Virus record (IMG/VR): IMGVR_UViG_2778261419_000001
Span: 1 to 6,360 of that record
Reading direction: 5' to 3' (one strand)
Length of the DNA stretch: 6,360 nt
Source of the DNA: a virus
Taxonomy: Duplodnaviria > Heunggongvirae > Uroviricota > Caudoviricetes
Positions 1 through 6,360 of this stretch are shown here, in pieces. Each line of letters begins with the position of its first letter. Within the stretch, counting starts at the first letter, position 1. The position numbers and the translations under genes are program-made. Below the pieces are notes generated by a model, which saw nothing but the letters and a program-made list of their open reading frames with translations, did no database searches and was not told the origin of the DNA.

Positions 1-195
1 CGCTTACCGCTCATGGGCACCTCTCTTTAAGCCATCTTAAATGACTCTGAGGTGTCTGTTAAACCCGTGGCGATTCAGTTATTGGTATCTCATTACGCAC
101 CATTGCTAAGAAAAGAAAATGCTCTGATGGCACAATTAGGAAGGAGTTGCAAACTGCAGTAGGATTTATAAACGGTGTAATGTCAGTATTTAAAT

Positions 196-215
196 AAGCG
201 CCAATTAAGGCGCTT
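196..215 (-). terminator. Stem-loop overlapping the stop codon of the 187-aa gene; possible intrinsic terminator
   Basis: Perfect inverted repeat AAGCGCC (196-202) / GGCGCTT (209-215) with 6-nt loop. On the minus-strand transcript the stop codon lies in the loop and the stem is followed by AUUUAAAU, which is U-rich but interrupted. Confidence 0.35.
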
Positions 216-768
216 TAAATGGAACGGGAACCTGTAAAGCGTTAGCAGCTATCTCAACTATTTTCTCGTTTGGAATATTTGCTAATATAAAGCGTTCCCT
301 TTCTTGTAAAATTTTGTTTATAACGTAATACACGCTTAACATGCTGAACAACATTGATTCTTCCTTTGCTTTGCAAGAATAGTTATCCACTTTCCAGTTT
401 TCAGACACATAGTCATATTTTGATTTAATTTGCTTTGATAGTAATAGAACATTTTTTAATGCTATTCGAGTGTCTCGATTGTAGTAAGAGTAAATATTAT
501 CTATGTTCTTCTCTAGAATAATTGGTTCAAACGTTTTCCCTAAAGAAATATACTGAAAATCTTTGGGTTTAAATGTGTGTTCTTTTATGCTTTTGCTAGT
601 GGTTTTGATAGATTTCTCTAGTATTGATAATTCATCCTCTAACTCAGTGAATATGCTTTTTTTTAATGTTTTTATCTTTTCTTTTTCCTTTCTAGACTCA
701 ACGTATGGCGCTAGTATAATACCCAAAAGAAAAGTGGTAAAAGGAATTAAGCTTTTGATAATGTCCAT
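205..768 (-). CDS. Hypothetical membrane-anchored protein, 187 aa: one N-terminal transmembrane helix followed by a Lys/Glu-rich soluble domain; cargo (moron) gene
   Basis: Intact ORF with ATG at 768-766 preceded by AAGGA 4 nt upstream. Residues about 5-23 (IKSLIPFTTFLLGIILAPYV) are hydrophobic, then KEKEKIK and a charged domain. Hand-sampled GC is about 30%, against about 55% in the terminase genes. No family recognised. Confidence 0.6.
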   Translation of the reverse strand: MDIIKSLIPFTTFLLGIILAPYVESRKEKEKIKTLKKSIFTELEDELSILEKSIKTTSKSIKEHTFKPKDFQYISLGKTFEPIILEKNIDNIYSYYNRDTRIALKNVLLLSKQIKSKYDYVSENWKVDNYSCKAKEESMLFSMLSVYYVINKILQERERFILANIPNEKIVEIAANALQVPVPFKAP

Positions 769-807
769 GGTTTCCTTATTTTTTCATATGATTAACGCTA
801 GGAAAAT

Positions 808-836
808 ATGATAATAAAAAACTAACGCGTACGCAA
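808..836 (-). promoter_or_regulatory. Candidate sigma70 promoter for the 187-aa gene
   Basis: On the minus strand: -35 TTGCGT (+ coordinates 836-831), 17-nt spacer, -10 TATCAT (813-808), about 35 nt upstream of the RBS. Found by eye only. Confidence 0.3.
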
Positions 837-913
837 AAATTATTGTATCGTGTTAAGAGTGGTTACTTTGTCACGTGGCTTAAGCCCGCCGTCGAGCGGG
901 TTTCGTCGTTTGA

Positions 914-922
914 GGGGGGGGG
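914..922 (+). repeat. Homopolymeric G9 tract (C9 on the minus strand) immediately 5' of an ATG
   Basis: Directly visible: GAGGGGGGGGG followed by ATG at 923. The tract doubles as the Shine-Dalgarno region and spacer for the 66-aa ORF. Confidence 0.9.
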
Positions 923-1123
923 ATGAATCAGACTGGTCAACCCAGCTATGCGCTTTTCGCCGGGAATGATAGTAGCAATCTCAAAACGTTTGTTCTTGAG
1001 GTTGATTGCTACCGTACTGAAGACGCGCTATTAGCAATGGAGAAAGCCATAAGCGAATTAAAAATCTGTCAGCGTCAGTTCGGCTATGGAAATGATTCTG
1101 GTGTCAGAGCTATTATTCGATAA
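923..1123 (+). CDS. Small hypothetical protein, 66 aa; 3' end overlaps the convergent 182-aa gene by 11 nt
   Basis: ATG at 923 directly follows a GAGG plus G-run that could serve as SD. Amino-acid composition is not low-complexity. No family recognised. It could be spurious. Confidence 0.3.
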   Translation: MNQTGQPSYALFAGNDSSNLKTFVLEVDCYRTEDALLAMEKAISELKICQRQFGYGNDSGVRAIIR

Positions 1124-1661
1124 TTCTTTCACCAATAATAACTGGCAATGGAATGAGCACTTCCCAGAATGGTTGATACCCTTCGTAAATCTGTGTTGTT
1201 TCACCCTTCCAGTAAAGATCCAGCCTCTGAGATACTTCTACTGGGGAGCAGTTCAGATTTAACAAATTCATATCACCTCTATGATAGTTCGACGATGAGC
1301 TGACTTGAAATATTGGGGTGTCAAGTGGGGATTTTGAAAAGCCTCTGAACCAGGCGGTTTCTTTTACAGACTCACATGCAAAAATTGATTGGAAGCGCGA
1401 TGGTTTTTCAGGGAAGTGTGATTTCCTTCGTTCTTCCAGTAGTATTTCTATTATTGCTCCAAATCGTTCGTCTGAGCTGACGAGGTTTATGTGGTAGTTG
1501 AAAAAAAGATTATTTGCATGCCGGGATACACCGTCGGAAAACAATGAGCTCGTATGAGCCTGAAGTGGAACGATTGGGCAGTACGGTTCTGCTAATTCAA
1601 TTTTCATGCCTGACTTCAGTGTGCGCTGCCTGTCAAGTGTATAAAAAAGATTGTTCGCCAT
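1113..1661 (-). CDS. Hypothetical protein, 182 aa; cargo gene between the Q region and the late promoter/lysis genes
   Basis: Intact ORF with ATG at 1661-1659. GAAGGA lies about 10 nt upstream, which is rather long spacing. Hand-sampled GC about 40-47%. No transmembrane segment and no motif I can assign with confidence. Confidence 0.5.
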   Translation of the reverse strand: MANNLFYTLDRQRTLKSGMKIELAEPYCPIVPLQAHTSSLFSDGVSRHANNLFFNYHINLVSSDERFGAIIEILLEERRKSHFPEKPSRFQSIFACESVKETAWFRGFSKSPLDTPIFQVSSSSNYHRGDMNLLNLNCSPVEVSQRLDLYWKGETTQIYEGYQPFWEVLIPLPVIIGERIIE

Positions 1662-1861
1662 ATTAATGCGTTCCTTCTGATATTGGTTATTTCTGTTGAT
1701 TTAACGATATCAGAATAGATAAGTATAGTGAATACAATGCCGTAAAAGCGGCAGCACGGCTTCCGTATCTGATAGCTTGGCTGGATGAAATGGCGTCGCA
1801 GCGCTCATAGTGGCAACGATTAGCGGACCTCGGCATTTGCCTGTTTTTATATTTAAGGCCG

Positions 1862-1893
1862 CTGACATCTGGAATTGTCGGGGATTTTTTATT
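1862..1893 (+). terminator. tR'-like intrinsic terminator (end of a 6S-like late leader) just upstream of the pinholin gene
   Basis: Stem CTGACA (1862-1867) / TGTCGG (1876-1881) with one G-U pair, then GGA TTTTTT ATT (T-run 1885-1890). The GTCGGGGATTTTTTAT arrangement resembles the lambda tR' end as I recall it. The Q-dependent promoter and qut site should lie in 1662-1861 but I could not pin down hexamers. Confidence 0.4.
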
Positions 1894-1928
1894 CTCTCAA
1901 TTTGCACCCGCATCTGCGAGGTGGAGTT

Positions 1929-2144
1929 ATGAAATCCATGGATAAGTTAACAACGGGTGTCGCCTATGGCACCTCAGCAGGTAGTGCCGGTTACTGGTTT
2001 TTACAGCTGCTCGATAAAGTCACGCCCTCACAGTGGGCAGCAATAGGTGTGCTGGGTAGCCTGGTATTTGGCCTGCTGACGTACCTGACAAACCTTTATT
2101 TCAAGATTAAAGAAGATAAGCGCAAGGCTGCGAGAGGTGAATAA
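1929..2144 (+). CDS. essD: Pinholin, phage 21 S21-type, 71 aa, with dual start M1/M4 (antiholin/holin)
   Basis: Translation [71 protein letters not shown] matches the S21/EssD pinholin as I recall it. GAGG lies 7 nt upstream of ATG 1929; a second ATG sits at 1938. Stop overlaps the next start (TAATG). The ORF-track start at 1875 is probably not used. Confidence 0.9.
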
Positions 2145-2641
2145 TGCCTCCATCATTACGAAAAGCAGTTGCTGCTGCTATTGGTGGCGGAGCAATTGCT
2201 ATAGCATCAGTGTTAATCACTGGCCCAAGTGGTGACGATGGCCTGGAAGGTGTCAGCTACATACCATACAAAGATATCGTTGGCGTATGGACTGTATGTC
2301 ACGGACACACCGGAAAAGACATCATGCTCGGTAAAACGTATACCGAAGCAGAATGCAAAGCCCTCCTGAATAAAGACCTTGCCACGGTTGCCAGACAAAT
2401 TAACCCGTACATCAAAGTCGATATACCGGAAACAACGCGCGGCGCTCTTTACTCGTTCGTCTACAACGTGGGTGCTGGCAATTTCAGAACATCGACGCTT
2501 CTTCGCAAAATAAACCAGGGCGATATCAAAGGCGCATGTGACCAGCTACGTCGCTGGATATACGCTGGCGGTAAGCAATGGAAAGGCCTGATGACTCGTC
2601 GTGAGATTGAGCGTGAAGTCTGTTTGTGGGGGCAGCAATGA
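2144..2641 (+). CDS. rrrD: SAR endolysin (T4-lysozyme-fold muramidase, phage 21 R21 / RrrD-like), 165 aa
   Basis: N-terminal Gly/Ala-rich weakly hydrophobic SAR segment ([20 protein letters not shown]). Catalytic spacing E-x8-D-x5-T in [16 protein letters not shown]. Near-identical to RrrD as recalled. RBS GAGG upstream; translationally coupled to the pinholin. Confidence 0.9.
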
Positions 2642-3081
2642 GCAGAGTAACCGCGATTATCTCCGCTCTGATTATCTGCATCATCGTCTGCCTGTTATGG
2701 GCTGTTAATCATTACCGTGATAACGCCATCGCCTACAAAGAGCAGCGCGACAAAGCCGCATCCACTATCGCTGATATGCAGAAGCGTCAACGTGATGTAG
2801 CAGAACTCGACGCCAGATACACAAAGGAGCTTGCTGATGCTAACGCGATTATCGAAAGTCTTCGTGCTGATGTTTCTGCTGGGCGTAAGTGGCTGCGCGT
2901 CAAAGCTGTCTGTCCAGACATGCATAAAATCACCGCCGCCTCCGGCGTGGATGATGGCACCAGCCCCAGACTTACTGACACCGCTCAACGGGATTATTTC
3001 ACCCTTAGAAAGCGGATTGAAACCAGTGATAAAATGATCCGAGGCTTGCAGCAATACATTCGCACGCAGTGTGTAAGATGA
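2638..3081 (+). CDS. rz: Rz inner-membrane spanin (i-spanin), 147 aa
   Basis: ATG 2638 overlaps the endolysin stop (ATGA). N-terminal TM helix ([19 protein letters not shown]), then a charged coiled-coil-like periplasmic domain. Ends resemble lambda Rz. The ORF-track start at 2626 is GTG; ATG 2638 is preferred. Confidence 0.85.
2837..3037 (+). CDS. rz1: Rz1 outer-membrane lipoprotein spanin (o-spanin), embedded in the +1 frame of Rz, about 66 aa
   Basis: AAGGAG (2824-2829) lies 7 nt before ATG 2837. Signal peptide with lipobox LLGVSGC, then a Pro-rich region ([14 protein letters not shown]...TPLNGIISP) matching lambda Rz1. The ORF-track start at 2831 is TTG. Confidence 0.8.
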
Positions 3082-3461
3082 GCAATCTTTGCTAATTAGC
3101 CATGAAATAGATAAATATCAGGCCAACGATGATTAGTGCCAGGCATCCTAATTGGTCAGAATGGCTGGCATTTGATCGTCTTGCTCTTCTTGCAGTTGAT
3201 TGGACAGCCCTCTGTCCTCGACTTCCTCTTGGCATTCCTCTCATTTATTCTCTCTCAACATTGATATTGAACTGACAGATGATAATTATTTCATGAAAGT
3301 GGTATCTCGTTGATTTGATTACGCTACATAGTCGCCGGATTTTCGCATTTATCGGCATCGGGCGGTGCAAAATTGGCATAATCGAAACGTAGAGTTTTTG
3401 GCTGACAACAGCATTAGCGGTCACCCGGAGAGTGTTGTGAACATGTTAATTACATGACGCT

Positions 3462-3782
3462 TTAGATGCATCGACATTTGATGATGCTTGTCAGACCTGT
3501 CATTTTCTTTGCTTCATTTTCAACATTGAGGAAGTTGGTTGAGCATATTTTTTGATAATCTCCAGTTGTGAATCCTGTTTTATCGATCTTGCGTTTCAAG
3601 GGATTAATCGTTTTGCAAGATGCTCTATGGATTCTGGTAAAGCGTTCGTCAGATTTATTACCTTTACCTCTGGTTCGCTTCAATGCATTGACAACATATC
3701 CGTCTGGATTATCGCCAAGCCAATTACGATAGTCTGATTCACTCTCAGTCTGAAGGTCACTTCTGAATACCTTTATGGACAT
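3462..3782 (-). CDS. Hypothetical protein, about 106 aa, basic, with a C-x22-C-x24-C-x-C pattern; cargo gene at the bor-equivalent position upstream of cos
   Basis: Intact minus-strand ORF. The second in-frame ATG (3782-3780) has AGGAG 7 nt upstream, so it is preferred over the track start at 3800. About 40% GC. No family recognised. Confidence 0.5.
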   Translation of the reverse strand: MSIKVFRSDLQTESESDYRNWLGDNPDGYVVNALKRTRGKGNKSDERFTRIHRASCKTINPLKRKIDKTGFTTGDYQKICSTNFLNVENEAKKMTGLTSIIKCRCI

Positions 3783-3901
3783 GAAGATACTCCTGTGCAT
3801 TTATGGTACGAAGAAATAGCAAAAGTATTTTTACCGTAAATTGCGAATCTACAAAAGCAAAACAATGCGTAATATCAGAGTGAATATTCTGCCTTTAATG
3901 T

Positions 3902-4096
3902 GGGTCCTTCTGATGACCTGAGCTCTCACGGGGCGGAAGGCGCGCGGGTTTTCGCTATTTATGACAATTTTCCGGTTTAAGGCGTTTCCGTTCTTCTTCG
4001 CCGTAACCTAATGTTTTTATTTAAAACACCCCCTGAAAAGAAAGGAAACGACAGGTGCTGAAAACGGGCTTTTTGGCCTCTGTCGTTTCCTTTCTC
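3902..4096. other. cos DNA-packaging site: cosQ-like GGGTCCT (3902-3908), cosN (12-mer 3931-3942), cosB with R3 (3983-4000), I1 A/T-rich putative IHF region (about 4005-4031), R2 (4035-4054, inverted) and R1 (4080-4096)
   Basis: Collinear with the lambda left end as recalled: CGCGGGTTTTCGCTATTTATGA follows the 12-mer; R3 CGTTTCCGTTCTTCTTCG; R2/R1 form an inverted repeat GAAAGGAAACGACAG / CTGTCGTTTCCTTTC; sits immediately upstream of Nu1. Confidence 0.8.
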
Positions 4097-4119
4097 TGTT
4101 TTTGTCCGTGGAATGAACA

Positions 4120-4665
4120 ATGGAAGTCAACAAAAAGCAGCTGGCTGACATTTTCGGTGCGAGTATCCGTACCATTCAGAACTGGCAGGAACAGGGAATG
4201 CCCGTTCTGCGAGGCGGTGGCAAGGGTAATGAGGTGCTTTATGACTCTGCCGCCGTTATAAGATGGTATGCCGAAAGGGATGCTGAAATTGAGAACGAAA
4301 AGCTGCGCCGGGAAGTTGAAGAACTGCGGCAGGCCAGCGAGACAGATCTCCAGCCAGGGACTATTGAGTACGAACGCCATCGACTTACGCGTGCGCAGGC
4401 CGACGCACAGGAGCTGAAAAATGCCAGAGACTCCGCTGAAGTGGTGGAAACCGCATTCTGTACTTTCGTGCTGTCGCGGATCGCAGGTGAAATTGCCAGT
4501 ATTCTCGACGGGATCCCCCTGTCGGTGCAGCGGCGTTTTCCGGAACTGGAAAACCGACATGTTGATTTCCTGAAACGGGATATCATCAAAGCCATGAACA
4601 AAGCAGCCGCGCTGGATGAACTGATACCGGGGTTGCTGAGTGAATATATCGAACAGTCAGGTTAA
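4120..4665 (+). CDS. nu1: Terminase small subunit (lambda gpNu1 homolog), 181 aa
   Basis: Translation MEVNKKQLADIFGASIRTIQNWQEQGMPVLRGGGKGNEVLYDSAAV... is essentially lambda Nu1 (winged-HTH N-terminus that binds the cosB R elements). It overlaps the A start by 26 nt, as in lambda. Confidence 0.92.
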   Translation: MEVNKKQLADIFGASIRTIQNWQEQGMPVLRGGGKGNEVLYDSAAVIRWYAERDAEIENEKLRREVEELRQASETDLQPGTIEYERHRLTRAQADAQELKNARDSAEVVETAFCTFVLSRIAGEIASILDGIPLSVQRRFPELENRHVDFLKRDIIKAMNKAAALDELIPGLLSEYIEQSG

Positions 4666-6322
4666 CAGGCTGCGGCATTTTGTCCGCGCCGGGCTTCGCT
4701 CACTGTTCAGGCCGGAGCCACAGACCGCCGTTGAATGGGCGGATGCCAATTACTATCTCCCAAAAGAATCCGCATACCAGGAAGGGCGCTGGGAAACACT
4801 GCCCTTTCAGCGGGCCATCATGAATGCGATGGGCAGCGACTACATCCGTGAGGTGAATGTGGTGAAGTCTGCCCGTGTCGGTTATTCCAAAATGCTGCTG
4901 GGTGTTTATGCCTACTTTATAGAGCATAAGCAGCGCAACACCCTTATCTGGTTGCCGACGGATGGTGATGCCGAGAACTTTATGAAAACCCACGTTGAGC
5001 CGACCATCCGCGATATTCCGTCGCTGCTGGCGCTGGCTCCGTGGTATGGCAAAAAGCACCGGGATAACACGCTCACCATGAAGCGTTTTTCCAATGGTCG
5101 TGGCTTCTGGTGCCTGGGCGGTAAAGCGGCAAAAAACTACCGTGAAAAGTCGGTGGATGTGGCGGGTTATGATGAACTTGCTGCCTTTGATGAGGATATT
5201 GAACAGGAAGGCTCTCCGACGTTCCTTGGCGACAAACGTATTGAAGGCTCGGTCTGGCCAAAGTCCATCCGTGGCTCCACGCCAAAAGTGAGAGGCACCT
5301 GCCAGATTGAGCGTGCAGCCAGTGAATCCCCGCATTTTATGCGTTTTCATGTTGCCTGCCCGCACTGCGGGGAGGAGCAGTATCTTAAATTTGGCGACAA
5401 AGAGACGCCGTTTGGCCTCAAATGGACGCCGGATGACCCCTCCAGCGTGTTTTATCTCTGCGAGCATAATGCCTGCGTCATCCGCCAGCAGGAGCTGGAC
5501 TTTACTGATGCCCGTTATATCTGCGAAAAGACCGGGATCTGGACCCGTGATGGCATTCTCTGGTTTTCGTCATCCGGTGAAGAGATTGAGCCGCCGGACA
5601 GTGTGACCTTTCACATCTGGACGGCGTACAGCCCGTTCACCACCTGGGTGCAGATTGTCAAAGACTGGATGAAAACAAAAGGGGATACGGGAAAACGTAA
5701 AACCTTCGTGAACACCACGCTCGGTGAGACGTGGGAAGCGAAAATCGGCGAACGTCCGGATGCTGAAGTGATGGCAGAGCGGAAAGAGCATTATTCAGCG
5801 CCCGTTCCTGACCGTGTGGCTTACCTGACCGCCGGTATCGACTCCCAGCTGGACCGCTACGAAATGCGCGTATGGGGATGGGGGCCGGGTGAGGAAAGCT
5901 GGCTGATTGACCGGCAGATTATTATGGGCCGCCACGACGATGAACAGACGCTGCTGCGTGTGGATGAGGCCATCAATAAAACCTATACCCGCCGGAATGG
6001 TGCAGAAATGTCGATATCCCGTATCTGCTGGGATACTGGCGGGATTGACCCGACCATTGTGTATGAACGCTCGAAAAAACATGGGCTGTTCCGGGTGATC
6101 CCCATTAAAGGGGCATCCGTCTACGGAAAGCCGGTGGCCAGCATGCCACGTAAGCGAAACAAAAACGGGGTTTACCTTACCGAAATCGGTACGGATACCG
6201 CGAAAGAGCAGATTTATAACCGCTTCACACTGACGCCGGAAGGGGATGAACCGCTTCCCGGTGCCGTTCACTTCCCGAATAACCCGGATATCCAACAGCG
6301 TATGGAAATATCATTCACCTGA
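4640..6322 (+). CDS. A: Terminase large subunit (lambda gpA homolog), 560-aa ORF; lambda-like to about residue 551, then a divergent 9-codon tail and stop; probably a C-terminally truncated pseudogene
   Basis: GTG start at 4640. N-terminal 550 aa match lambda gpA (641 aa) as recalled. From about nt 6294 the sequence departs (PNNPDIQQRMEISFT-stop here, versus PNNPDIFDLTEAQQ... in lambda), with in-frame TGA at 6320-6322. Confidence 0.8.
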   Translation: MNISNSQVNRLRHFVRAGLRSLFRPEPQTAVEWADANYYLPKESAYQEGRWETLPFQRAIMNAMGSDYIREVNVVKSARVGYSKMLLGVYAYFIEHKQRNTLIWLPTDGDAENFMKTHVEPTIRDIPSLLALAPWYGKKHRDNTLTMKRFSNGRGFWCLGGKAAKNYREKSVDVAGYDELAAFDEDIEQEGSPTFLGDKRIEGSVWPKSIRGSTPKVRGTCQIERAASESPHFMRFHVACPHCGEEQYLKFGDKETPFGLKWTPDDPSSVFYLCEHNACVIRQQELDFTDARYICEKTGIWTRDGILWFSSSGEEIEPPDSVTFHIWTAYSPFTTWVQIVKDWMKTKGDTGKRKTFVNTTLGETWEAKIGERPDAEVMAERKEHYSAPVPDRVAYLTAGIDSQLDRYEMRVWGWGPGEESWLIDRQIIMGRHDDEQTLLRVDEAINKTYTRRNGAEMSISRICWDTGGIDPTIVYERSKKHGLFRVIPIKGASVYGKPVASMPRKRNKNGVYLTEIGTDTAKEQIYNRFTLTPEGDEPLPGAVHFPNNPDIQQRMEISFT

Positions 6323-6360
6323 AAGGGATGACAGCCGTTGGCGAAGGTGAGTTACTCATC

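Follow-up and report, generated by a model that had tools for sequence, protein, structure and literature searches.

A minus-strand gene for a small Cys/His protein occupies the interval between the lysis genes and cos in a Caudoviricetes genome. The DNA analysed, hereafter called the window, comprises 6,360 nt (positions 1 to 6,360 of IMG/VR record IMGVR_UViG_2778261419_000001). The gene in question, the target gene, encodes a 106-amino acid (aa) protein that belongs to a cross-phylum domain family and is carried on a mobile 846-bp cassette (Table 1). An initial annotation made from the sequence alone had described an open reading frame (ORF) of about 106 aa at this place, preceded by AGGAG at a spacing of 7 nt, and both features were recovered, the former in the ORF list as well as in the RefSeq PGAP call (WP_000025003.1 / WP_000025002.1, "hypothetical protein"). 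A 112-aa alternative reading from an ATG at 3800 is likewise open. The start methionine of the 106-aa form is common to all homologues in the alignment, and GGAG is found at equal distance from the ATG in the homologues.

Sequence conservation shows the target gene to be real and subject to purifying selection. Among 5.8 billion proteins searched, 24 close clusters from Enterobacteriaceae (Escherichia/Shigella, Klebsiella, Raoultella, Citrobacter, Leclercia, Cedecea and Pseudescherichia) were found, nearly all of them 105-110 aa long and 58-69% identical. Together with 66 loci in IMG/VR and the 90 plus 169 members of a cross-phylum family described below, these clusters overturn the earlier designation of the ORF as an orphan. 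Among 35 distinct homologous coding sequences of identical length, the mean pairwise difference per site is 0.53 at third codon positions versus 0.22-0.25 at first and second positions, and the median ratio of nonsynonymous to synonymous substitution rates (dN/dS) is 0.17 (139 unsaturated pairs). The close-family alignment contains 35 invariant positions including His52 and all four cysteines (Cys56, Cys80, Cys103 and Cys105). The cysteines are spaced C-x23-C-x22-C-x-C, which leaves the previously noted His52 in place and corrects a minor slip in the reported pattern (C-x22-C-x24-C-x-C). The protein is basic, as had been stated, with an isoelectric point (pI) of 9.66 and 21 Lys and Arg versus 12 Asp and Glu residues; most close homologues have a pI of 8.5-9.6. 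Its N-terminus reads MSIKVFRSDLQTESESDY and the first cysteine is residue 56. A hydrophobic segment is absent, the best 19-residue Kyte-Doolittle window scoring -0.03, and signal peptide and lipobox are therefore absent as well, in agreement with the initial annotation. The window protein has zero Pfam, NCBIfam and PADLOC matches (PADLOC 2.0, E≤1) and only a chance-level match in PHROGs (E 0.37). A PDB-sequence profile match to designed beta-trefoils was discarded as spurious ("W-L-x-x-N-P-D-G"), and Rfam returned only chance-level matches on window positions 2900-4200.

The target gene resides on a prophage accessory cassette, a moron, and this cassette is mobile. The full 846 bp align as one ungapped block in 17 out of 17 cassette-bearing sequences (16 fetched loci and the window), with 98-100% identity among the fetched loci. 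Two pieces of the cassette, 3082-3461 and 3440-3830, were counted separately and each is present in 54 of 5,426 complete E. coli genomes, whereas the sequence from 3928 on, containing the neighbouring cos and nu1, is common to more than 4,000 E. coli genomes and to lambda-like phages. The GC content is 0.38-0.43 over positions 3000-3900, lower than the 0.50-0.55 of the lysis and terminase flanks. The right edge of the cassette (3927/3928) lies within about 5 nt of the cosN-like sequence and the whole Rz-to-cos interval is therefore filled by the cassette. Deduced from the position of cos, the target gene would be located ~150-470 bp from the right end in virion DNA. Small gene size, presence/absence polymorphism and deviant GC are the features that define morons (PMC3594210). 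The earlier assignment to this class is supported by the presence/absence polymorphism, the low GC and the occurrence in the same place and orientation beside unrelated packaging modules.

The window protein represents a domain of ~95-105 aa that is widely distributed in bacteria and carries a conserved set of potential zinc ligands. Searched exhaustively with phmmer, 1.8 billion representatives yielded 90 matches at E≤1e-3, and a subfamily profile retrieved 169 more proteins. A genome scan using a 16-sequence subfamily alignment as query located members in Chloroflexota, Gamma-, Beta- and Deltaproteobacteria, Bacillota, Bacteroidota, Planctomycetota, Gemmatimonadota and Armatimonadota. Most family members are solo proteins of 90-110 aa and the rest are fusions. 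Across 72 diverse domains, residues W21, G28, H52, C56, K78 and C105 are invariant while F6, Y18, V30, N32, T72, Y76, C80 and C103 are at least 90% conserved. H52, C56 and C105 are thus present in all 72 distant relatives, and C103 is present in 68 of them. The last Cys pair takes the form CxxC in 57 of these sequences and CxC in 15, and three sequences without C80 retain H52, C56, C103 and C105. Where four conserved Cys/His ligands were looked for, five Cys/His positions proved invariant in the close family. Because H52 and the cysteines are maintained in close as well as distant relatives, a zinc site is the natural reading of the alignment, and the pattern fits a His-Cys3 structural zinc site formed by H52, C56, C103 and C105 next to a conserved polar/aromatic surface. 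We therefore infer zinc binding, which the initial annotation had raised as a possibility.

The domain is predicted to adopt a confident fold and appears to be undescribed. AlphaFold models based on the close and the distant alignment reached predicted local distance difference test scores (pLDDT) of 86.5 and 93.7, respectively, and show an identical order of secondary structure elements. Structure prediction had been proposed earlier as a check on this protein; it supplied a confident model and no fold neighbour in the PDB or BFVD. The domain is not represented by any model in Pfam, NCBIfam, PHROG or PADLOC. Weak, sub-threshold matches to DUF6233 occur in three family members (best E 0.0016) over ~14 residues at L-H-x3-C, and the window protein itself has no such match. 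DUF6233 is uncharacterised and the link consequently adds no functional information. A relationship to a known family of mundane role, the outcome the initial annotation had named as contrary to its proposal, was not found in these searches. The literature searched yielded no description of the domain. The logic of a moron and that of a reader coupled to an effector are both familiar.

Fusion proteins place the domain at the reader position of nuclease scaffolds homologous to type IV restriction enzymes. In P0047 and its relatives the domain lies N-terminal to an HNH domain matching EcoKMcrA residues 196-267 (6GHC; E 2.5e-24), and therefore sits where the N-terminal domain of McrA sits. The latter is described as the 5-methylcytosine reader of McrA (PMC6182155). 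The PADLOC model mREase_IV (type IV methyl-directed restriction) matches these McrA-type fusions with E values of 1e-22 to 1e-25, and one source gives a family member the name McrA. In P0060 the domain precedes a second type of HNH domain matching PDB 6YEX, and the protein weakly matches a phosphorothioate-dependent nuclease model. In locus L098 it forms the N-terminus of a McrB homologue (Walker-A/AAA_5), and McrC (PF10117, E 1.5e-84) is encoded next. Fusions to TIR domains, DUF6998 and DUF3427 also occur in the family and tandem repeats of the domain are present in single proteins (P0032, P0042). Seven HNH fusions were counted among the 120 matches listed for the subfamily profile. The verdict of unknown function can thus be narrowed, as the domain recurs in McrA-type HNH, McrBC, TIR and Ser/Thr kinase proteins, and it is best read as a non-catalytic recognition module, most likely for DNA. 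In L098, the McrB homologue is distributed over two plus-strand ORFs (6004-8374), with Walker A in 6004-7188 and the rest of AAA_5 in 7244-8374, a split that may be due to a frameshift or an assembly error in a metagenome-assembled genome; its middle region matches PADLOC PDC-S02.

At nearly all loci the gene lies at the lysis/packaging junction, in variable surroundings. A survey of the Rz-cos interval, suggested by the initial annotation, was carried out on 74 loci comprising the 66 IMG/VR loci, seven loci from homologue look-ups and the window. In nearly all of them the gene is antisense to the lysis genes, and in most the first packaging gene lies to its left in divergent orientation. The left neighbours belong to at least five unrelated types plus several singletons (Table 1). 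In the eight loci with a 287-aa HNH protein as left neighbour, the homologues are ~58-68% identical to the window protein, and the HNH protein is located on either side of the target gene depending on the phage. Between the gene and Rz lies a hypervariable stretch that encodes, besides many unknowns, a Tad2-like protein, a protease related to reverse transcriptase (RT)-protease systems and a candidate defence protein (PDC-S47, E 3e-24). No partner gene is conserved over the 74 loci, the neighbours in the window being Rz and nu1. Among 50,697 deposited phage records, one contains a homologue, a Klebsiella prophage, and scans of IMG/VR with P0027, P0029, P0030 and the A4 profile found no more distant phage-borne relatives.

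In the window, Rz is the last late-strand lysis gene and convergent with the target gene; Rz-equivalent genes of homologous loci match PF03245. The nu1 gene is annotated in relatives as "DNA-packaging protein nohD" or "terminase subunit Nu1". The lambda cohesive-end pattern has no match within 3 mismatches at the cos position of the window, and cos was therefore placed by sequence reading and homology. The counterpart of the cosN-like sequence in lambda reads GGGCGGCGACCT. In the window, the cosN-like sequence is followed by a cosB-like sequence resembling that of lambda. An intact cassette, 100% identical, is also present in E. coli NT1F10 (L001, NZ_CP075462.1 3629441-3641831) inside a heavily eroded prophage, where truncated copies of bet and rrrD are joined to each other and the terminase, portal and lom genes are reduced to fragments. 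This hints that the cassette was kept during phage decay.

Table 1. Features of the window and of homologous loci. Positions refer to the window unless a locus is named; left neighbours are given with the number of loci and the distance between start codons.
Feature	Position	Strand	Loci	Start-codon gap (nt)	Basis or remark
Holin gene	1875-2144	plus			lysis cassette
Endolysin gene	2144-2641	plus			lysis cassette
Rz-type spanin gene, Rz1 embedded at 2831-3037	2626..3081	plus			ORF list; PGAP "lysis protein"
Cassette, 846 bp, from Rz stop to cosN	3082..3927	none			presence/absence and alignment
Putative unannotated 50-aa ORF MRGMPRGSRGQRAVQSTARRARRSNASHSDQLGCLALIIVGLIFIYFMAN	3092..3244	minus			ORF list; within cassette
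Target gene, 106-aa ORF (ATG 3782-3780, stop 3464-3462)	3462..3782	minus			ORF list; PGAP gives same product
Shine-Dalgarno sequence AGGAG	3794-3790	minus			7-nt spacer to ATG 3782; read from sequence
Weak candidate promoter (TTGTAG 3854-3849, 15-16 nt spacer, TAAAAAT 3833-3827)	3827..3854	minus			sequence reading
Lambda-like cos region, conserved	3928..4119	plus			homology to lambda-like phages starts at 3928
cosN-like sequence GGGCGGAAGGCG	~3932-3943	plus			read from sequence
nu1-type small terminase gene	4120..4665	plus			ORF list; divergent from target gene
Large terminase gene	4640-	plus			ORF list
Tad2-like gene (PF11195)	L002-L005 8769-9044	minus			junction slot; anti-defence-type
Junction-slot genes	L057 6405-7205; L044 6419-7171; L024 5043-5906; L033 6652-7512	all minus			
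Left neighbour, 326-335-aa Terminase_2 TerS			25	46-51	
Left neighbour, lambda Nu1 (181 aa)			11	338-369	
Left neighbour, 287-aa HNH protein			8	93-96	
Left neighbour, 164-aa Nu1-like protein			6	335	
Left neighbour, 216-aa protein			3	52	

Candidate expression signals accompany the gene in many loci outside E. coli. An extended -10 element, TGnTAnAn(T/A), mostly in the form TGTTATAAT or TGTTATATA, is located 35-42 nt upstream of the ATG in 43 of the 74 loci. All 43 are non-E. coli loci with motifs of the TGnTATAAT/TGnTATATA class and make up the majority of the copies outside E. coli, and the element falls within the 46-51-nt gap to terS. An element consisting of an A-tract, a GC-hairpin and a T-tract follows the gene at a distance of 20-70 nt in many non-E. 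coli loci. The eight loci with the 287-aa HNH protein as left neighbour possess a TTGTAA ... TAAAAAT arrangement similar to the weak candidate promoter of the window. At the family level, these motifs make autonomous expression plausible. A long imperfect hairpin, GCCATTACGATGGGyCTGCCCATGGTGATGGC, is conserved 3' of homologues (L025 at ~5400-5470, L040, L056, L062 and L066) and is followed by a terminator-like AAAAAA-GC-rich hairpin-T(n) element whose T-run is better on the late strand; this hairpin/terminator-like element is absent from the E. coli cassette.

Positionally and functionally, the target gene is a bor-type moron outside the Bor family. It fills the slot of lambda bor, as the initial annotation had recognized, and shares the minus strand, the location directly after Rz and before cos and the antisense orientation relative to the late operon. 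In contrast to the Bor lipoprotein, the window protein is cytoplasmic and basic, contains a Cys/His domain and possesses neither signal peptide nor lipobox. The two have no sequence relation, and the proposed independence from Bor is borne out by the lack of any Pfam, NCBIfam or PHROG match. With the lambdoid morons bor, lom and HK97 gene 15 it has small size, presence/absence polymorphism and deviant GC in common but differs in that the E. coli copy has no evident promoter or terminator.

Judged by its architectures, the domain behaves like a type IV reader, but homology to the known readers was not found. The N-terminal domain of EcoKMcrA, DUF3578 of McrB and the EVE, YTH, SRA, winged-helix and SBD modules are similar in size and occupy the same place in the architecture. 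However, neither sequence nor fold similarity to SRA, PUA/EVE/YTH, winged-helix, McrA N-terminal, DUF3578 or SBD domains was detected, and the 106-aa window protein is a solo protein coupled to no nuclease in cis or in an operon. These readers are not known to possess a His-Cys3 site. T7 Ocr, T4 Arn and T4 IPI* are small, effector-less phage anti-restriction proteins that act by binding, and T7 gene 0.3 lies on the leading end of the injected DNA, as does the target gene in lambda-type cos phages. Ocr and Arn are acidic DNA mimics binding the enzyme, whereas the window protein is basic and homologous to the enzymes' own recognition module and would therefore compete for substrate instead of binding the enzyme. 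No similarity of the window protein to Ocr, Arn or IPI* was found.

The interpretation we favor, with a probability of roughly 40%, is that the moron encodes an effector-less nucleic-acid reader, stabilised by zinc, which acts by ligand occupancy in phage-host or phage-phage conflict. With no effector domain and no conserved partner gene, the protein can act only by binding, and it probably does so by nucleic-acid binding. A compact alpha/beta domain would be held by the putative His-Cys3 site, with C80 adjoining, and would contact a nucleic-acid ligand, most likely DNA and possibly a modified base, via the invariant surface residues Y18, W21, N32, T72, Y76 and K78. This ligand could then be competed for or masked during conflict. 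In the leading version of this model, DNA would be shielded from reader-nuclease (type IV) enzymes, the marks that these enzymes seek being masked in a substrate-masking counter-defence. A constitutive extended -10 promoter would drive the gene. In lambda-type cos phages, the DNA end with the gene (~150-470 bp away) enters the cell first. Such a promoter and the place near the first-entering end would together allow immediate synthesis on infection, and the protein would also be made in lysogens. Shielding by substrate competition with reader-nucleases is the most direct mechanism available, although we regard it as an unlikely one to be at work here. Similarly doubtful is the broader scenario in which a new zinc-dependent DNA-reading fold is plugged into McrA-type HNH, McrBC, TIR and kinase effectors and lambdoid prophages captured the bare reader as an anti-restriction shield.

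Several observations weigh against a nucleic-acid reader in phage conflict. In cellular genomes, the solo members lie among housekeeping genes and lack a conserved neighbour: over three contigs with Pfam annotation and 93 neighbour ORFs in 29 genomes, no gene family was encountered more than 2-3 times. The domain is thus not confined to conflict loci. The HNH fusions are single genes in variable regions. In the window, a scan at 9 of 12 consensus matches found no minus-strand promoter and no terminator was found downstream of the stop codon of the target gene, which leaves autonomous expression of the E. coli copy unproven. DNA methyltransferase genes of three types are present in the flanks of 15 of 75 loci, a count that has no baseline and is uninformative, and a link between the gene and phage DNA methyltransferases was dropped. 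Finally, the commonest fusion partner among the 120 matches listed is a Ser/Thr kinase (10 fusions; also P0105). Kinase fusions fit a general sensor of a protein or small-molecule ligand as well as a DNA reader.

These kinase fusions suggest that the domain might instead be a general sensor or adaptor with a protein, peptide or small molecule as its ligand. The prophage copy would then titrate or mimic this ligand and could, for instance, serve as a decoy for a host sensor kinase or TIR protein. The TIR fusions, the tandem repeats and the lack of similarity to any known nucleic-acid-binding fold point in the same direction. We nevertheless consider this alternative, a serious one, somewhat improbable, as the domain is positioned like a DNA reader in the McrA-type and 6YEX-type HNH enzymes and in the McrB homologue, the window protein and most close homologues are basic, and the invariant Lys, Asn and aromatic residues would be typical of sites contacting bases or the backbone. 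The gene could also encode a superinfection-exclusion or defence factor that is expressed in the lysogen and recognizes incoming foreign, e.g. hypermodified, DNA, blocking it directly or recruiting host nucleases in trans. Its classical moron position and orientation, its retention in the decayed NT1F10 prophage and the use of the domain by defence-type effectors would suit this role, as would the candidate defence genes in the adjoining slot (PDC-S47, the protease and the 287-aa HNH protein). However, the slot also contains the anti-defence-type Tad2-like gene; since defence and anti-defence genes are mixed there, the neighbourhood gives no direction. Moreover, the window protein lacks both an effector in cis and a conserved partner gene, PADLOC contains no model that matches it, and a 12-kDa binder alone would need to act stoichiometrically, which is less direct than shielding. 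An exclusion factor is consequently, in our estimate, an improbable explanation.

The constant abutment to the first packaging gene would be explained by a regulator of packaging or late functions acting at cos/pac or the terminase promoter region. In the largest class of loci, the two start codons are only 46-51 nt apart, and the window cassette ends within 5 nt of cosN. Yet the packaging genes beside it fall into at least five unrelated types, from cos as well as pac systems, and about 99% of E. coli genomes with the same cos/nu1 do without the gene. A packaging role is unlikely because the neighbours are unrelated and the gene is dispensable. The single homologue among the deposited phage records, the orientation antisense to the late operon and a domain family that is mainly cellular and unlinked to phage genes reduce it further, and we give it very little credence. 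A spurious or decaying, functionless ORF might be suspected from the purely hypothetical annotation and the undetected promoter of the E. coli copy, but this is effectively refuted by the low dN/dS, the conserved length, the invariant close-family positions, the confident fold and the presence of homologues across phyla. Set beside these alternatives, the nucleic-acid reader remains our preferred interpretation, in which nucleic-acid binding, expression in the lysogen and a role in conflict are inferred.

A cross-phylum family that no Pfam, NCBIfam or PHROG model describes, with a confident predicted fold and no structural neighbour in the PDB or BFVD, is defined by these results, and the domain swaps with EcoKMcrA-type, 6YEX-type and McrBC enzymes supply a testable hypothesis for it. 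If the domain reads DNA or modified bases, it would constitute a new specificity module for type IV restriction, a class of modules of interest as epigenetic tools, and would identify single-gene nucleases among proteins annotated only as "HNH endonuclease". The prophage copy illustrates how a sensor of host immunity may be put to new use by phages as a protein on its own. If the domain is an ordinary small regulator, the result would be modest, one more moron with a named domain. The loci also show that enterobacterial lambdoid prophages have a hypervariable accessory slot at the lysis/packaging junction, in which candidate defence and anti-defence genes are mixed.

The cassette contains a second, putative ORF of 50 aa that has no PGAP annotation (Table 1). 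It is preceded by a GAGAG motif 5 nt 5' of its ATG and combines an Arg-rich N-terminus with a hydrophobic C-terminal segment, and its product could be a small tail-anchored membrane peptide. A 49-aa ORF 53% identical to it is located elsewhere in locus L065 (2747-2878, minus strand), and the N-terminus of an ORF in L037 (5578-) is also related. Upstream of the holin gene, a low-GC stretch (0.29-0.43) contains two further minus-strand ORFs at 205-768 and 1113-1661, encoding a 187-aa protein that matches phrog_31367 (E 3e-105) and a 182-aa protein that matches DUF2441 / phrog_5663 (E 2e-58). E. coli genomes otherwise like the window diverge upstream of the holin, homology beginning at 1904, and the two ORFs look like a second moron-type insertion. 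In the enterotoxigenic E. coli strain H10407 (L112), a 350-aa DNA methyltransferase gene (1906-2958, plus strand) lies between the antiterminator and holin genes of the prophage that carries the cassette and replaces window positions 1-1900.

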